DNA from: a virus
Lineage: Duplodnaviria; Heunggongvirae; Uroviricota; Caudoviricetes
Length of the DNA stretch: 41,123 nt
IMG/VR virus record: IMGVR_UViG_2565956719_000013
Reading direction: 5' to 3' (one strand)
Shown: one piece after another, positions 2,399 to 39,208 of the stretch
Numbering within the stretch: the first letter of the stretch is position 1
Layout of the letters: each line of letters begins with the position of its first letter
Translations under genes and position numbers: made by a program
Notes under the pieces: generated by a model
Told to the model about the DNA's origin: nothing
Database searches by the model: none
What the model saw: the letters and a program-made list of their open reading frames with translations, nothing else

Positions 2399-2696
2399 GT
2401 TTAGACCTCGATACTTTAAAAATTTGAACGACGTTACCGCGCGTTTTAATAACCGCAGCCAGCATGACAGCGTTGATAATGACCTCAGATAAATCCACAG
2501 CCATTGGCGTACGTAACCAGATTGCATAGGCGACTCGAACAGGAATACTGGCCGCAGCAACAATCAGGAAATAAGCAAGCCATCCTCCCCACCTTCGATG
2601 TTGAGAGCCGTTACGCCGGAATGTGACAACGCGAATTGCTATGCCAGTGCAAATAACTGCATTAGTGATAAGCAAAAAAAACTCATGCGTTACCAT
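2388..2696 (-). CDS. small membrane protein of lysis cassette (holin/antiholin-like)
   Basis: GGGGAGA RBS; 2-3 predicted TM helices; overlaps holin end and endolysin start. Confidence 0.5.
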
Positions 2697-3087
2697 CGTC
2701 TTTTCTCCCCGGAATTAACTCGCGTGGATTATCGGAACGGTGATAGAGCCATATACCAATACGCACAGCGACAATTGCTGACACGAATGCGCCTGCAGAG
2801 AAAACAATCCCTTTTTCAAAAGAGTCCTGCGTGATGGTAGGGATCAGGCTGGCTATGCCGATAAGAATTGATGCTGCTGGTTTGTAAAAGAGAAGGCCGC
2901 AAAGAAAGCTGAGCATCGACAGGAGCACCCGGCGACGGATGGGGTACTCTACTGCAGAGGTAACAAAAATTACCGCCCCAGCCAAAGCCCCTAAAGCAAC
3001 CTCCGGAGGGACACCTGCAATAACTGCAGCAAGAGAACCAAAACTAAGCAACTGATTTAATTGCTCACTTGTTACTTGAGCAGACAT
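2683..3087 (-). CDS. putative holin
   Basis: AGGAGA RBS; several hydrophobic helices; charged C-terminus; first gene of lysis cassette. Confidence 0.55.
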   Translation of the reverse strand: MSAQVTSEQLNQLLSFGSLAAVIAGVPPEVALGALAGAVIFVTSAVEYPIRRRVLLSMLSFLCGLLFYKPAASILIGIASLIPTITQDSFEKGIVFSAGAFVSAIVAVRIGIWLYHRSDNPRELIPGRKDDGNA

Positions 3088-3370
3088 ACTTTCTCCTGTT
3101 TACTATCTATAAGCCAGTCAATTATTGATGACTAAACCCGCATAGTAAACCATATATGAATCATTATTGTTCCATATCATATATCTCAATAAAAGTACTA
3201 ATGATTTTACAGAACGAGCCAGCAGAGTGGGGGGGCAGTTGTACAGGAACCATAGACTTAATTTTGTATTTAATAATGCTATGGTGTAATAAACCTGAAC
3301 ATGTATTTAAAATACGTACTGATTCATGATAGAATTCAAAGATAACTTTTCACCAACTCCGTTTTTGATA

Positions 3371-3397
3371 CCCGCAATATTTTGCGGGCTTTTTTTT
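3371..3397 (+). terminator. intrinsic terminator oriented for + strand only
   Basis: stem CCCGCAA (3371-3377) / TTGCGGG (3382-3388), loop TATT, T8 tract 3390-3397 overlapping tailspike stop; no T-tract in the minus orientation. Confidence 0.5.
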
Positions 3398-6300
3398 AAC
3401 GTTCTTCCAGAGACTGAACCCGCTCTTTTATCTTATCCATTTCTCTGCGCTGCCATGCTGCCTCGATATAGAATAAGAGATCAGGTCTGACCCCCCATCT
3501 AGATCCTGCTGGCGTTATTTCAACGCGCTCAATGATGTCTTCTATTACCATCACTGGATTATCATCCTCATCAACAATGATGCTCCCGTCATTATCAGTC
3601 AGCGGCATTTCCCTTTGGCCAGTAATGACGTCATCATATACTGCGGGATAATCGTCATAGCAAAGAAAGGCATAGCGGCATGTTGTGCTTTCTTCTTCCA
3701 TGAGTCCGTGAGAAATAAGAACATCACGAAGTTGCTGCGCGATTACACCATGATGTATCCTCGCCCCTTCTTCCCCCTTTATAGCGACAGCGTTCAGCCA
3801 TTTATAAGCGATATACCTGACGTCACCCCAGGCATCCAGCAATGTTTCGTCAGGAGAGACCGGCTCTGTCTTTAATGTTCCGTCACTGGTAACCACAGGA
3901 TTGGAGCCAAGATAAACTATCGAGAACCTGTTTCCCGGACCACCAAGAGCATTTACATTATCAAGATAAGGTTTAACATCTCCGTTCTCAAAAAGATGTT
4001 CGAGTGCGTTATATACCGCGCGACGTGGAGTACTGCTTCTGGAACCATGCAACGTTATCATTGCACCATCTGCTGAAGACGTTGTTTCACCGCCGCTAAC
4101 GATTAATCTCTGAGCGGTAACATCATCAGACGGTACTTTCTTCGCAATAATGGCGTAATTACCCTCAAGTTTGACTTCCGCGCGAACTTGTCCTGATGTA
4201 CCTGCATGGACAGTCAGTGACTGGACGGCAACATCATCTGTGAAATCAACGGGTACAGGAACCGTCCTCACGCCTGACGTCGACATAAAAGTAGGAAGCG
4301 TTCTGTTAGGAGTGGCTCCGTAGACAAAATCCCTTGAAACAAATTCTTCCTGTTTAATTTTCACCCTGAAACAATACAAATCAGCCGGGTGACCATCGTG
4401 AACATAAGGATATTTTCTGTTGTTATCCCCTATGCTCCATGGGTTTAGAAAGTCTTCCCCACCGAAAATGTAGTACAGCCAGTTGTCTTTGATACAAACT
4501 GAACCAACACCAACCGCAGAGTTAACTATTCCGCCCTGATAAATCTGATCAGTAACATTAACCCACTCTACATTATCCAGACTCCACTCATTGACGTTAA
4601 CTCTGGTCATAAATGTTCTTGGATAATTTCCTGCATAACGGTTATCAGGTTCTCCTCCTTCCCACTCACCAAATGCGCGCTCACTGCCAAAAATAATCAG
4701 CTCATCGCCAACTTTGGCAAAAGGAAGGTTTGAGTGATGAACATTATTTGGGAAGCGAAGAGAATTCCATGATGTACCTAAATCAGAGCTTCTGTGCAAT
4801 GAACTACCGGGTTGAGTACTTAATGTCCCCCTGGTCGTCAGATACAGAATGCCATCATAATATTTTACACATGGCTCAGATGCATTCGCCTCATATTCTG
4901 CAGGTATGCGTCTGCGAACAAAGCTACCAGGAGAACCGAAAGCATCAGAGAAATAGAGTATCCCAAGCTCGCGTGGACCAATATCACCATTATGGTAGCC
5001 AACAGCAAAACTGTTATCGCTAATCGTCGCAAAACTGTGAATCTCAGTAACAGGAGTGCTTCCGTCAACAAAAGAAGGAATAGTTCCAAGACTGGTTTTT
5101 CTCCATGGTGACGAGTGAAATGATGTACCAAAACTCCAGTATCTACCCTCGTTATTCTGATCCACATCCTGGGTATTTTGCGTCGTAACTGTAAAAGTAT
5201 TTTTATCAATAACAGTAGTCACCGTCATATTCCCGGTAACACCTGTAACACCAGAGTTTGAGAAGTTGACAAAATCACCAGCAAATAATCCGTGATCAGT
5301 AATGCGAATATAAGCGACTTGCTGATTTGCTGCTTTCGTTATACCACCATAAACGCGAAGGCTGCGACTCATTGGGCGATCCCACAACTCTGCAACCTGC
5401 AGTTTATTTCCGCTCACGGTCCGCGTCTCAATTACAGCAAAAAGGCGATTTCTGACAACCCCCATACTCATGCAGTGATAGTTAACTGTGGGATAGTTTT
5501 CATGTAAATCTGTAAGCCATTCCGGCGTTGTCCAGGTCTTCCCGTCATCTCCTGAGCGAACCCATGCAACATGGAGGTTATTTACACCATGGCGGTCTCC
5601 AGCCATAAAAGGCGCATAGATGACATTGTCATATACAAACGTTTTATCCTGCGTCCAGGCGTTGTACCACGGTGTATCTGTAATTTTAAATAACTCTCCC
5701 TGGATAAAATCTTCAGAAGCATAAAAAAGAGGCTGGCCCGGTATTCTCTCAAATAAAAAACGAGCATTTTTAAATCGACTGACATCCGGAAGAGTTGATA
5801 CTTTAAAAGTAAGCCCTAATCCGTCAATTTTATAACCTGGAGATGAGGCTTCAAGGCACGCGCTTATTGCAGTGGAATCGTCATTTATACCATCACCAAC
5901 AGCTCCAAAATCTTTGGGGCTAATAGCATCACGCATTTTATCCTGGAACGTTCGGTACACAGCCCCAGAACCATACTGAATAAACCAACCAAAACCACCA
6001 ACAACCCCGGCGATTGCAGCATCGACATAATTACGCATTGAGCGATTATTTACAGCGTCCTGCTCAAATGATGGATCTGCAAGGTTAGAAATTTTGTTTT
6101 GCTTTGCATCGTAATATTTTGCAAGCAAAGATGGTTTCATCAATGCACGTCTGAACCACCCAAAACATTGCTGGATCAGCATCGTCAGGTAGTCAAAGGC
6201 ATCTTCATGCACTTCGGGGAAAAATTTTCCCTGATTGCGAAGGTCTGTCTCCTGCACTACATCAAGCACACGATCTATCGTAATTCGCCATCCAGTAGCA

Positions 6301-6515
6301 AGCGGAGACGGAAGAACCACAGAACCGCCACTATAAGTGCCCGCCCCAGTTACCGTATAACCGGTATCCAGAACCAATTCTGTTACGTTCCCGTTCAGGT
6401 CAGACACCTGAACAACCAGGTCTGATTTTCTGAAAATTCGAAAAGTATACGGAAACGACGTCGTAACGCCGTTACCGGTGTATTCGTTGTGGTCAACTTC
6501 GGTTGAGACCGTCAT
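3396..6515 (-). CDS. tailspike: T7 gp17-like N-terminal anchor, Asp-box domain, C-terminal intramolecular-chaperone-type domain; candidate endosialidase
   Basis: 1039 aa; GGAG RBS; N-terminal pattern resembles T7 tail-fibre N-domain; two Asp-box motifs (SGDDGKTW, SSDLGTSW); C-terminal SDGTLK...IAQQ... region resembles S74-type autocleaving chaperone domains. Confidence 0.85.
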   Translation of the reverse strand: MTVSTEVDHNEYTGNGVTTSFPYTFRIFRKSDLVVQVSDLNGNVTELVLDTGYTVTGAGTYSGGSVVLPSPLATGWRITIDRVLDVVQETDLRNQGKFFPEVHEDAFDYLTMLIQQCFGWFRRALMKPSLLAKYYDAKQNKISNLADPSFEQDAVNNRSMRNYVDAAIAGVVGGFGWFIQYGSGAVYRTFQDKMRDAISPKDFGAVGDGINDDSTAISACLEASSPGYKIDGLGLTFKVSTLPDVSRFKNARFLFERIPGQPLFYASEDFIQGELFKITDTPWYNAWTQDKTFVYDNVIYAPFMAGDRHGVNNLHVAWVRSGDDGKTWTTPEWLTDLHENYPTVNYHCMSMGVVRNRLFAVIETRTVSGNKLQVAELWDRPMSRSLRVYGGITKAANQQVAYIRITDHGLFAGDFVNFSNSGVTGVTGNMTVTTVIDKNTFTVTTQNTQDVDQNNEGRYWSFGTSFHSSPWRKTSLGTIPSFVDGSTPVTEIHSFATISDNSFAVGYHNGDIGPRELGILYFSDAFGSPGSFVRRRIPAEYEANASEPCVKYYDGILYLTTRGTLSTQPGSSLHRSSDLGTSWNSLRFPNNVHHSNLPFAKVGDELIIFGSERAFGEWEGGEPDNRYAGNYPRTFMTRVNVNEWSLDNVEWVNVTDQIYQGGIVNSAVGVGSVCIKDNWLYYIFGGEDFLNPWSIGDNNRKYPYVHDGHPADLYCFRVKIKQEEFVSRDFVYGATPNRTLPTFMSTSGVRTVPVPVDFTDDVAVQSLTVHAGTSGQVRAEVKLEGNYAIIAKKVPSDDVTAQRLIVSGGETTSSADGAMITLHGSRSSTPRRAVYNALEHLFENGDVKPYLDNVNALGGPGNRFSIVYLGSNPVVTSDGTLKTEPVSPDETLLDAWGDVRYIAYKWLNAVAIKGEEGARIHHGVIAQQLRDVLISHGLMEEESTTCRYAFLCYDDYPAVYDDVITGQREMPLTDNDGSIIVDEDDNPVMVIEDIIERVEITPAGSRWGVRPDLLFYIEAAWQRREMDKIKERVQSLEER

Positions 6516-6619
6516 GTTAAATCTCCAGATAGTCGCAGCACCCGTTGCGCCGCATATCTGGTTATTCTATTACCTGAAAAACCACATATGGATAGAAAGA
6601 CTGTAAATACGAATAGATA

Positions 6620-6634
6620 TTACCTTTCAGGTAA
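6620..6634. promoter_or_regulatory. operator-like dyad TTACC-N5-GGTAA
   Basis: ATTACCtttcaGGTAAT, perfect dyad between tailspike start (6515) and SOS-box gene. Confidence 0.55.
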
Positions 6635-6671
6635 TTTGCAAAACGTGCTGGATAGCAAACAAATTATTTGC

Positions 6672-6691
6672 TACTGTATAAATATACAGTT
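6672..6691 (+). promoter_or_regulatory. LexA (SOS) box
   Basis: TACTGTATAAATATACAGTT; CTGT-N8-ACAG core at 6674-6689, ~20 bp upstream of ATG 6711. Confidence 0.7.
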
Positions 6692-6710
6692 ATTGCATGG
6701 AGAAGATAAG

Positions 6711-6968
6711 ATGCAGCAGTATCACTATCCACTGGAAGACGGATTTACCGAAAGGATTCACACGCCGGGAGGCGTCAGGTCACTGGTGGAGGGATCGCAC
6801 TTGATGAAATTACTCCGGGATCTCGATAAGGATGGATTTAATGTCGATGGCCCACTTGCCGAACTGACTGCACTGATTAACTACGTCACCAGCTCACAGA
6901 TGTCTATGCAGGATCTGCAAACACATCTCGACTATTGTGCCGAACAATTACGAAAACAAACCAGATAA
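6711..6968 (+). CDS. SOS-regulated small protein, paralog of antirepressor C-terminal domain (candidate antirepressor)
   Basis: GGAGAAG RBS; 85 aa; ~35-40% identical by eye to C-terminal ~80 aa of the 7284..7994 product (shared GV, LM-LL, DG, AELT, QTH positions). Confidence 0.6.
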   Translation: MQQYHYPLEDGFTERIHTPGGVRSLVEGSHLMKLLRDLDKDGFNVDGPLAELTALINYVTSSQMSMQDLQTHLDYCAEQLRKQTR

Positions 6969-25534: not shown

Positions 25535-25624
25535 ATCAATGACTCCGTACGCAATTAAATTATTACCAATTTAACCACATATGATTTATTTATCGTAGAT
25601 AGTTGACATTTAACGCACGAATTA

Positions 25625-34434: not shown

Positions 34435-34514
34435 GGTAAGCCCTGTTATTAGTATTGGGATTACGGTCATTTTGTGCTGACACAAAAAAAAGATCAACCA
34501 GATTTGGTTATTTA

Positions 34515-38565: not shown

Positions 38566-39208
38566 GAAATACACACTAATCTATGCAGATCCACCCTGGG
38601 TATACCGGGACAAAGCCGCAGATGGTAATCGCGGTGCCGGTTTTAAATATCCGGTTATGAGTGTGCTGGATATCTGCCGCCTTCCTGTGTGGGATTTGGC
38701 CGATGAAAACTGTCTGTTGGCCATGTGGTGGGTGCCAACACAACCACTCGAAGCACTAAAAGTTGTTGAAGCCTGGGGATTCCGTCTGATGACGATGAAG
38801 GGCTTCACGTGGATAAAATGTGGTAGTCGACAACCAGATAAACTGGTTATGGGTATGGGACACATGACTCGCGCCAATAGTGAAGATTGCCTGTTTGCGG
38901 TAAAGGGAAAACTACCTACGCGCATTAATGCAGGGATCGTTCAGTCATTTACCGCACCGCGGCTTGAGCATTCAAGAAAACCAGATATCGTTCGTGAAAA
39001 ACTTGTGCAATTGTTAGGCGATGTTTCTCGCATTGAACTGTTCGCCCGCCAGACGTCTCATGGCTTTGATGTTTGGGGTAATCAGTGCGAAGACCCGGCA
39101 GTGCAACTACATCCTGGATACGCGTTGGATATTGGCGGATTAACAAATGCATTCAGCAATGCTCCGCTGTCACCAACAGACAACCAGGGGCGGGAGCGTG
39201 CAGCATGA
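38558..39208 (+). CDS. MT-A70-family DNA N6-adenine methyltransferase
   Basis: 216 aa; IYADPPWVY (DPPW) motif near N-terminus; no adjacent restriction gene. Confidence 0.8.

Follow-up and report, generated by a model that had tools for sequence, protein, structure and literature searches.

The window analysed here is a stretch of 41,123 nt of viral DNA in which about 300 bp of AT-rich sequence separate the tailspike gene from the lysis cassette. The initial annotation had described in this spacer a terminator for rightward transcription with no + strand gene upstream, a run of seven Gs and a 42-codon open reading frame (ORF). This raises the question of what the spacer is, where it came from and which transcripts its terminator would stop.

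Module boundaries around the spacer

The host element is a Uetakevirus-like (epsilon15/phiV10-like) prophage of E. coli that adjoins yfgI and carries an endosialidase tailspike specific for the K1 capsule. The gap covers 3088-3395 (308 nt) and lies between a holin-like gene (2683-3087, - strand) and the gene of the 1039-aa endosialidase tailspike (3396-6515, - strand). Its GC content is 0.335-0.355 compared to ∼0.45-0.50 in the flanks. The AT-rich spacer is where the initial annotation had placed it, and both of its module labels are correct. The holin-like gene encodes a membrane protein (Pfam Phage_holin_8, 1.4e-11; PHROG 198 holin, 5.6e-41), is annotated as 'putative holin' in RefSeq relatives and opens the lysis cassette, in which a holin, a GH19 endolysin and an Rz-like spanin come next.

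We compared the tailspike with its relatives segment by segment. The N-terminal adaptor (5920-6515, - strand) is of the Uetakevirus type, with 97.7% identity to EC.W1-9 and 84% to phiV10, and this homology extends upstream to ∼6968. The endosialidase block at 3425-5817 (- strand; Pfam End_beta_propel, End_tail_spike and Peptidase_S74) is 99.6% identical to siaK1 of CUS-3. The last tailspike codons (3396-3424, - strand) are part of a lineage-specific segment that is not in CUS-3: the C-terminus reads ...WQRREMDKIKERVQSLEER here and ...WQRREIERIKARLDLIEGKH in CUS-3, and the divergence sets in ∼10-13 codons before the stop. As the near-identity to CUS-3 ends at 3425, the exchanged block ends inside the gene. 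A tblastn search with the C-terminal 32 aa returned the same tail in three phage records of the same lineage only, and the donor was not found among them.

On the other side of the spacer, the megablast homology of the lysis module with other Uetakeviruses stops at 3074-3112 and a weaker, structured homology continues to ∼3160. The spacer core at 3161-3424 belongs to neither partner, and the two end points, ∼3160 against the other Uetakeviruses and 3425 against CUS-3, make this a mosaic junction. The proposal of a recombination junction is thus supported, with the breakpoints now placed by alignment. The K1 endosialidase graft on the epsilon15-like backbone is located as well: the shared block sits between the adaptor of the family and a 3' tail of the lineage. 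The gap itself is an ordinary module boundary, which in related phages is the site of a surface-sugar-modifying gene. It is a composite of three pieces, namely a leader (3088-3160), AT-rich DNA (3161-3370) and a terminator (3371-3397). When the whole spacer was folded, the + strand gave z = −0.3 and the - strand z = −2.2, the latter explained by two hairpins; an inverted repeat at 3249-3285 was not significant on folding (z = −1.4 and −2.4).

A conserved RNA hairpin in front of the lysis genes

The leader of the lysis genes, conserved and structured, makes up the left 70 nt of the spacer, a feature that the initial annotation had passed over. A Shine-Dalgarno sequence AGGAG can be read at 3093-3097 (- strand), 5 nt upstream of the ATG at 3087; in relatives GGTGG is found at this position. 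The leader hairpin (3098-3150, - strand) abuts it with its 3' arm. Its lower stem is formed by GUUUACUAU and AUAGUAAAC (3142-3150 with 3098-3106) and its upper stem by AGUCA and UGACU. Across 38 distinct sequences 91.9% of the cells were paired, compared to 35-52% with slid partners, and the covariation score was 0.304 compared to 0.228 ± 0.011 in shuffles, none of which reached it (0/500). Six pairs showed changes on both sides; at pair 29-69, for example, 21 sequences have G-C and 14 have A-U. The structure is also specific to the strand of the late mRNA, where the 91.9% of paired cells include 20.9% G-U, whereas only 73.1% pair on the opposite strand. The mean minimum free energy was −22.8 kcal/mol on the late-mRNA strand compared to −9.6 kcal/mol on the opposite one, the sense strand being more stable in all 38 sequences. 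Pairs that are kept through compensatory and wobble changes, on one strand, are what we expect of a conserved cis-acting RNA structure. A covariance model of the leader scored 67.9 bits with its sole match at this site, and scanning 2900-3600 and the phiV10 leader against Rfam returned sub-threshold noise only and no family for the hairpin.

The hairpin probably sets the processing, the stability or the translation of the lysis message. The stretch at 3088-3160 is the leader that the family shares in front of its lysis cassettes, and on the late (- strand) mRNA its long hairpin runs up to the Shine-Dalgarno sequence from which the holin-like gene is translated. In the alignments with other Uetakevirus relatives the hairpin is preceded by the palindrome AACCATATATGGTT, of which the window has a degenerate copy, AAACCATATATGAA, at 3146-3159. 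The pattern AACCA-N4-TGGTT has seven matches in the window compared to 1.4 expected, and three of them are intergenic and upstream of - strand genes; sites of this type lie at 3146, 6580, 25573 and 34496. Hairpin and palindrome stand before the lysis cassette in all sampled Uetakevirus relatives and are not in Rfam. They are an element of wider use and a candidate handle on lysis timing in these phages.

Several sigma-70 promoter readings were considered for the lysis leader and none was adopted, their positions differing between lineages. As these sigma-70-like matches overlap the hairpin variably by lineage, some transcripts may lack the 5' arm.

The terminator and the AT-rich core

The predicted intrinsic terminator at 3371-3397 faces + strand transcription, which is antisense to the late genes. 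Its hairpin CCCGCAA-TATT-TTGCGGG (3371-3388) has a 7-bp stem with five G-C pairs and a 4-nt loop, and a folding energy of −12.1 kcal/mol (z = −3.5; 0/200 shuffles were as stable). It is followed by a C and then by eight Ts (3390-3397), which overlap the tailspike stop codon (3396-3398). On the - strand UAUCAAAAAC lies 3' of the hairpin and there is no U tract. The GC-rich short-loop hairpin and the U tract of an intrinsic terminator are thus found together for the + strand only, so the description of a strong, rightward-only terminator holds. We counted one terminator-like site in the spacer, where shuffles led us to expect 0.1 ± 0.3. The stem is invariant across more than 100 copies of the locus, while the loop comes in two mutually reverse-complementary forms, TATT and AATA, and the length of the T tract varies from 7 to 9 nt. 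Since the late strand has no U tract, late transcription should be able to continue beyond the tailspike and reach the lysis genes; the hairpin, we infer, can cap the 3' end of the processed tailspike message. Shielding from host read-through is provided by a bidirectional terminator at 1113-1140, and the terminator at 3371 is therefore not needed for that.

To see what occupies the same place in related phages we surveyed the slot in 80 relatives, where its length ranges from 111 to 2458 nt, and inspected 10 representative slots for antisense ORFs. These encode proteins of 259-646 aa: seven matched Acyl_transf_3 (two of them with SGNH), one Wzy_C and one DUF2142, and one had no match. In phiV10 the oac gene is antisense and its stop lies 12 nt from the stop of the tail-fiber gene. 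Most slot types have a GC-rich hairpin right after the tailspike stop. The IMG/VR relative L085 shows the geometry of the window: its stop codon lies in an A run, the hairpin that follows has no T run behind it, and an antisense ORF of 321 aa is kept. The terminator of the window sits exactly where the antisense conversion genes of the relatives end. The slot in relatives holds serotype-conversion genes (acyltransferase-3, Wzy-like or DUF2142), often antisense to the late genes and ended by a hairpin against the tailspike stop. Lying between tailspike and holin-like gene, the spacer has the place of a Uetakevirus conversion moron. No polysaccharide-modifying protein (AT3, Wzy or Gtr-like) was found in it: none of its ORFs is conserved, and Pfam and PHROG gave no match.

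We think that the spacer is probably the moron slot of an epsilon15/phiV10-like prophage whose tailspike was rebuilt into a K1 endosialidase, with the three pieces as its composite content and the G run and the ORF as incidental features. The terminator at 3371 is best read as that of an emptied or never-filled slot. With the conversion gene absent, the only transcription left for it to stop would be antisense transcription that arises in the lysis cassette or the AT-rich spacer and heads for the structural genes. No sequence similarity was found between the core or the terminator and the moron-bearing slots, so the argument for an emptied slot is one of position and geometry, and an unknown donor is equally possible.

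The AT-rich core (3161-3370) has no detectable homolog outside endosialidase-carrying prophages of the same type. It occurs in 72 of 5426 complete E. coli genomes, three phage records, ∼20 IMG/VR contigs and eight metagenome contigs; the conversion-gene slot would be vacant in a prophage that is widespread in ExPEC and APEC. With the spacer as query, blastn in distant mode against phages, plasmids and E. coli genomes gave copies from the same lineage only, and both exact and degenerate pattern scans of the GTDB species representatives for the core gave 0 matches. The IMG/VR and metagenome matches to the core are all colinear with the window; in none did the core have different surroundings or a gene inserted into it. 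When the core was compared by short-word blastn with 62 other slots and with CUS-3, phiV10, TL-2011b, EC.W1-9 and phiv142-3, chance matches of 12-17 nt were all that appeared. The suggestion of a remnant gene found no support in a tblastn search of 14 slot proteins against the spacer (353-nt subject), in which the best E value of ∼0.05 was noise and no coding remnant was detectable. Nucleotide diversity in the core (π = 0.0060) was compared to synonymous diversity at the 3' end of the tailspike (πS = 0.0085) and in the holin-like gene (0.016); the comparison showed no excess conservation in the spacer and is a test without power. With all copies at least 97% identical, conservation does not tell a functional sequence from one that simply has a recent common ancestor. 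The core may be described as AT-rich filler peculiar to this lineage, with no gene and no detectable selective constraint.

A diversity at the neutral level and the lack of homologs elsewhere would also fit a different origin, in which the core including the terminator (3161-3397) is an inert hitch-hiker from illegitimate recombination at the grafting of the endosialidase and the hairpin persists merely because the lineage is young. The segment is bracketed by a 12-nt direct repeat (GACTAAACCCGC at 3130-3141 and GACTGAACCCGC at 3412-3423), and lysogeny by the related phage ZX5 had no host phenotype (PMC9782041). However, by our estimate a region this large would contain ∼0.16 direct repeats as good as this one by chance alone. 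Moreover, the stem has not taken a single substitution in more than 100 copies despite the inversion of the loop and the length changes of the T tract, and a hairpin stands at exactly the same position in most slot types of the relatives. We regard this origin as unlikely.

Slightly less likely still is a small RNA gene. A promoter-like site, TTTAAA-18-TGaTAGAAT with an extended -10 (3306-3335, + strand), would together with the terminator (3371-3397) delimit an RNA of ∼57 nt (5'-AGAUAACUUUUCACCAACUCCGUUUUUGAUA-hairpin-U8), that is, an Hfq-type sRNA expressed from the prophage as an 'RNA moron' in the conversion-gene slot. The extended -10, a consensus match only, lies ∼55 nt upstream of the strong U8 terminator, and a U-rich stretch precedes the hairpin. 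There are five promoter-like sites in the spacer compared to 1.5 ± 1.1 in shuffles, and neither of the two hexamers nor the stem varies among 28 aligned copies, though the overall diversity is too low for this to mean much. The Pas sRNAs of lambdoid prophages directly adjoin holin/lysozyme operons (bioRxiv 10.64898/2026.05.13.724894). Against this, the -35 is weak (TTTAAA, 18-nt spacing) and the best Rfam score was 19 bits compared to a gathering threshold of 99 (E ∼1-8). The sole common polymorphism outside the loop, C/A at 3354 (12 vs 16 copies), falls in the middle of the putative single-stranded seed. With the overall diversity at the neutral level, the seed is not conserved beyond neutral as in an Hfq-dependent sRNA, a comparison of low power. 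A blastn match was found in no EPEC or EHEC genome, so the candidate is not a Pas homolog at ∼70% identity or more. An extended form of this proposal seems more doubtful again: that the slot carries such an RNA moron (∼57 nt, Hfq-type, ∼3342-3397, + strand) in ExPEC/NMEC lysogens instead of a capsule or O-antigen enzyme, and that the adjoining, undescribed family-wide leader (hairpin plus AACCA-N4-TGGTT) gates the expression of the Uetakevirus lysis genes.

The G run and the 42-codon ORF are incidental to the moron slot. The seven Gs (3229-3235, + strand) are present as the initial annotation reported; length variation among isolates, which a phase-variable homopolymeric tract would show, was not borne out. 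The 72 complete E. coli genomes that have the spacer all match at 95-99% identity, and each of the 60 matches listed for them spans 74 nt and not 76. GGGGG or GAGGG stands in every one of these genomes, of the 48 locus records and of the eight metagenome contigs. The G7 is private to the window, as a 2-nt expansion of the GGGGG/GAGGG tract, or it may be a sequencing error. With a tract length of 5 in all other copies this is not a length-variable site in the population. The ORF (ATG 3201 to TGA 3329, + strand) exists, lies within a longer ORF of 57 aa beginning at 3156 and, as first described, has no Shine-Dalgarno sequence. As a gene we judge it spurious: with G5 in place of G7 the frame shifts after codon 10 (alternatives of 43 and 28 aa), so the ORF is broken in relatives by the 2-nt difference; it has no Pfam or PHROG match and is unannotated in ZX5 and in nine RefSeq genomes. 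A phase-variable switch for the small ORF (3156/3201-3329) is highly improbable and already refuted at the population level, for although the G7 lies inside the ORF and homopolymeric G tracts can slip, a length other than 5 was seen in none of more than 100 independent copies, GAGGG breaks up the run in 4 of 28 aligned copies, and the ORF lacks a ribosome-binding site and homologs and differs over its C-terminal two-thirds in every other copy. In the main these findings tidy the annotation, from which the ORF and the 'variable' G tract can be dropped as spurious.

Comparison with known systems

Structured mRNA leaders and processing hairpins between cistrons exist in other phages, such as the RNase III sites of T7 and lambda sib. 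The leader described here resembles them in being a G-U-rich two-tier hairpin of ∼20 bp between an upstream cistron and the next Shine-Dalgarno sequence, conserved on the mRNA strand; it differs in having no Rfam entry. Within the family, the phiV10 hairpin reaches −30 kcal/mol, whereas the copy in the window is shorter (9 + 5 bp, −17 kcal/mol). If the small RNA were real, it would, like the Pas sRNAs of EPEC/EHEC lambdoid prophages (bioRxiv 10.64898/2026.05.13.724894), be a small terminator-ended unit beside the lysis cassette, but in another phage type and other pathovars and without a sequence match in EPEC/EHEC genomes.

The closest systems are vB_EcoP_ZX5 (MW722083) and the prophages of APEC O18, IHE3034, CE10 and APEC O1, which are the same element with the same gene order and a spacer that is 97-99.4% identical. 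They have G5 where the window has G7, and most carry the AATA allele of the loop. The spacer is described neither in the ZX5 paper (PMC9782041) nor in the annotations of ZX5 and the related prophages. CUS-3, a P22-like K1 prophage, shares the endosialidase block (99.6% over 2393 nt), and its siaK1 is followed by the phase-variable O-acetyltransferase gene neuO, so that the position of the conversion gene is directly downstream of the tailspike as it is here. However, the backbone of CUS-3 is Lederbergvirus and that of the window Uetakevirus, the last ∼13 tailspike codons differ, and the window has neither neuO nor its heptanucleotide repeats. The G7 does not vary and so does not correspond to the repeat tract of neuO. 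Compared to the moron slots of epsilon15/phiV10-like phages (phiV10 oac, the O-acetyltransferase of TL-2011b), the window differs in having no conversion gene and no similarity to any filled slot, its tailspike and holin-like genes being only 308 nt apart. It shares with them the position, the flanking modules and a hairpin or terminator where the tailspike gene stops. Its terminator also faces the direction in which phiV10 oac and the L085 ORF run, antisense to the late genes.

Composition of the spacer between lysis cassette and tailspike

The window opens with the host genes yfgH and yfgI (1-1071). The prophage part extends from ~1290 onward, with the lysis genes and the tailspike on the - strand: an Rz-like spanin (1290-1772), a GH19 endolysin (1772-2398), a holin (2388-2696), a holin-like membrane protein (2683-3087) and a 1039-aa tailspike (3396-6515) with the full endosialidase domain set and an S74 intramolecular chaperone. 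The initial annotation had described the spacer between the last two genes correctly, both in its extent (3088-3395) and in its sequence features, including its AT-richness (GC 0.34-0.35 versus ~0.45-0.50 in the flanks). A palindrome between yfgI and the spanin (1113-1140, AAAACCCTCTGT-TACT-ACAGAGGGTTTT, perfect 12-bp stem with A4/T4 flanks) is likely a bidirectional terminator at the host-prophage border, blocking yfgI read-through. The nearest published phage was vB_EcoP_ZX5 (99.3% over 2600-3900), a temperate Uetakevirus (PMC9782041). We found the spacer in 72 of 5426 complete E. coli genomes, in every case on the chromosome and always beside or under an annotated endosialidase; the K1 strains carrying it include APEC O18, IHE3034, CE10 and APEC O1, and a plasmid search returned no copy.

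On the lysis side, megablast homology to Uetakevirus-like phages (HEMP4, EC.W1-9, phiv142-3, TL-2011b, phiV10 and Tyrion) ends between 3074 and 3112, and recognisable homology extends to ~3160 by alignment. On the tailspike side, 3425-5817 is 99.6% identical to CUS-3 siaK1, the identity falls abruptly to ~65% in the last 10-13 codons and the sequence past the stop is unalignable. The N-terminal adaptor and upstream region (5920-6968) are of Uetakevirus type, with 97.7% to EC.W1-9. These shifts in identity indicate that the tailspike is a three-part chimera of a Uetakevirus adaptor (5920-6515), a CUS-3-type endosialidase (3425-5817) and a private C-terminal tail of ~10-13 codons, whose peptide returned only three same-lineage records from the phage records searched.

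The segment 3161-3424 matches neither parent. Comparison with CUS-3, four named phages and the other types of slot (the interval from tailspike stop to holin-like gene in Uetakevirus relatives) gave chance matches only, two scans of GTDB species representatives gave no match, and all IMG/VR and metagenome contigs with the segment are colinear with the window. Since this orphan segment, which includes the AT-rich core (3161-3370), is flanked by two homology breaks, the earlier reading as a recombination junction was right. The alignments add a refinement: the endosialidase block ends within the tailspike gene, and the composite spacer has a left portion of 70 nt that belongs to the lysis module.

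A 12-nt direct repeat (GACTAAACCCGC at 3130-3141 and GACTGAACCCGC at 3412-3423, 11/12 identical) brackets the lineage-specific segment; its ACCCGC is also the 5' arm of the terminator. Chance alone would give about 0.16 repeats of this kind, so this one may be coincidental or may be microhomology left at the original joint. In the locus records L027/L111 (IMGVR_UViG_2740892258_000015) window position 3494 is joined to ~31929 via ~217 nt unlike the window; most structural genes are lost, the spacer and lysis cassette are retained, and the arrangement is either a ~28-kb deletion derivative or a misassembly. Among 28 copies the synonymous diversity of the endolysin (1772-2398) was 0.082, 4-10 times the 0.009-0.022 of the neighbouring holin genes and the 3' end of the tailspike; this contrast suggests a separate recombination within the lysis cassette.

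G tract, small ORF and diversity of the core

A run of seven Gs (3229-3235) and a 42-codon ORF without a Shine-Dalgarno sequence (ATG at 3201, TGA at 3329) had also been pointed out. Both exist, but the G7 is private to the window, and a check of population copies found no length variation among genomes, locus records and metagenome contigs. Ten of ten aligned relatives have GGGGG or GAGGG, a 76-nt probe over the tract placed 72 of 72 genomes in the 95-99% band, with each of the 60 matches listed aligning over 74 nt, and the 5-nt tract recurs in 48 locus records and eight metagenome contigs. As the other copies all have 5 nt, the G7 reflects either slippage confined to this copy or an error in sequencing. 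The difference of 2 nt also means that the C-terminal two-thirds of the ORF differ in every other copy. We rejected the ORF as a gene and judge it spurious: its frame is altered elsewhere, the Shine-Dalgarno is missing, Pfam and PHROG searches gave zero matches and it is unannotated in ZX5 and nine RefSeq genomes. The spacer contains no conserved ORF, and neither the tract nor the ORF should be retained as a feature.

Across 28 copies pi was 0.0087 for the whole spacer and 0.0060 for the core, compared to piS values of 0.016 for the holin-like gene, 0.022 for the holin and 0.0085 for the adjacent 1.2 kb of the tailspike. In this low-power test with little divergence, the core appears to evolve at about the local neutral rate, and the comparison lends no support to a gene or a small RNA.

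Terminator and lysis leader

The strong terminator reported for the + strand only (3371-3397) is a real intrinsic terminator and is explained by its position. Its hairpin (3371-3388, -12.1 kcal/mol, a stability that none of 200 shuffles reached) is followed by T8, and it is the sole terminator-like site in the spacer (0.1 expected); in the - direction UAUCAAAAAC comes after the hairpin, which does not qualify there as a terminator. The stem is invariant in every copy examined, and the T tract has a length of 7, 8 or 9 nt. The loop (3378-3381) is AATA in the majority of copies; the window, like 10 further locus records, has TATT. These alleles are exact reverse complements and hence reflect a single loop inversion with the stem intact, not two substitutions. 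Loop inversion is a typical hairpin-templated event, and because of it the terminator shows the peak nucleotide diversity of the spacer.

During lytic growth, late transcription would cross the hairpin, U-tract-less in this direction, from the tailspike into the lysis cassette. In the lysogen, antisense transcripts from the AT-rich spacer or the lysis cassette would halt at 3371-3397, which would keep antisense transcription out of the structural genes. The spacer contains five promoter-like sites compared to 1.5 expected. The main alternative is that an extended -10 site (3306-3335) and the terminator yield a putative small RNA of ~57 nt, as the initial annotation had considered. The architecture fits and prophage small RNAs beside lysis cassettes are known (Pas sRNAs, bioRxiv 10.64898/2026.05.13.724894), but a common C/A polymorphism lies within the seed and conservation is not in excess.

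In all sampled relatives, the 70 nt adjoining the holin-like gene (the leader) conserve a structure that the initial annotation missed. The 38 distinct leaders share a palindrome (consensus AACCATATATGGTT) and, after it, a two-tier hairpin of 21 bp that runs up to the Shine-Dalgarno with its 3' arm. The window's copy of the hairpin lies at 3098-3150 (- strand, 9 + 5 bp, -17 kcal/mol) and a degenerate palindrome at 3146-3159; a covariance model found a single strong copy in the window (67.9 bits), and no Rfam family resembles the hairpin. Standard pairs occupy 91.9% of cells versus 35-52% with partners slid by 1-3 columns, and the covariation score is 0.304 versus 0.228 ± 0.011 (0 of 500 shuffles), in tests on related sequences with a structure derived from members of the tested set. 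Both sides changed at six pairs; pair 29-69, for instance, occurs as G-C in 21 sequences and as A-U in 14. G-U accounts for one fifth of paired cells, so the structure forms only on the late-mRNA strand; pairing on the opposite strand is 73.1%, and the mean MFE is -22.8 kcal/mol for sense versus -9.6 for antisense, with sense the stabler strand in each of the 38 leaders. Owing to indels, RNAalifold gives a weak consensus on the raw alignment (-2.0 kcal/mol). The hairpin would shape expression of the holin-like gene; its candidate roles for the lysis message are translational gating and a processing or stability function. Common to the whole phage group, it is the sole mildly novel item here.

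The leader's internal loop at 3136-3139 varies more than any other spot in the spacer (AAACCC, AACCCC, AACTTC or AAACCT, with an extra base in one copy). Pairing there is predicted to be weak or absent, while neither stem varies within the lineage.

The inverted-repeat half-site motif AACCA-N4-TGGTT has seven matches in the window with at most one mismatch (1.4 expected; 0 of 100 shuffles reach seven). Copies lie at 3146-3159, 6580-6593 (intergenic, upstream of the tailspike), 25573-25586 (intergenic, upstream of the portal operon), 34496-34509 (intergenic, after the cro-like gene) and 38979-38992; the replication genes, too, have one of the intergenic copies upstream. Most other Uetakevirus relatives have a perfect copy ahead of the leader hairpin. 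The over-representation and intergenic placement hint at a putative phage-regulator binding site.

The conversion-gene slot in related phages

Among 80 IMG/VR relatives retrieved using the holin-like protein, the tailspike stop and the holin-like start are 111 to 2458 nt apart, and many slots hold one large ORF opposite the late-gene strand. Ten such ORFs were tested: seven are acyltransferase-3 proteins (two of them SGNH fusions), one is Wzy_C-like, one DUF2142 and one without assignment. phiV10 carries oac (O-antigen acetyltransferase) antisense in the slot, its stop 12 nt from the tail-fiber stop; TL-2011b has its acetyltransferase in late-strand orientation, small hypothetical genes occur in EC.W1-9 and phiv142-3, and in CUS-3 neuO occupies the equivalent position after the endosialidase. 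The conversion genes in these slots identify the site as the family's serotype-conversion (moron) slot. In the endosialidase lineage it is a slot without a gene, and no coding relic is detectable in the window's slot, contrary to the suggestion of a remnant gene.

In most slot types a GC-rich hairpin sits immediately past the tailspike stop, with sense, bidirectional or antisense polarity depending on the lineage. One relative (L085) has exactly the window's geometry, a stop codon within an A run and then a hairpin without a downstream T run, but unlike the window it retains an antisense ORF of 321 aa directed at the hairpin. On this basis the 'orphan' terminator is best read as that of an antisense moron slot, empty in the window. 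The spacer is an ordinary mosaic junction of a known prophage type.
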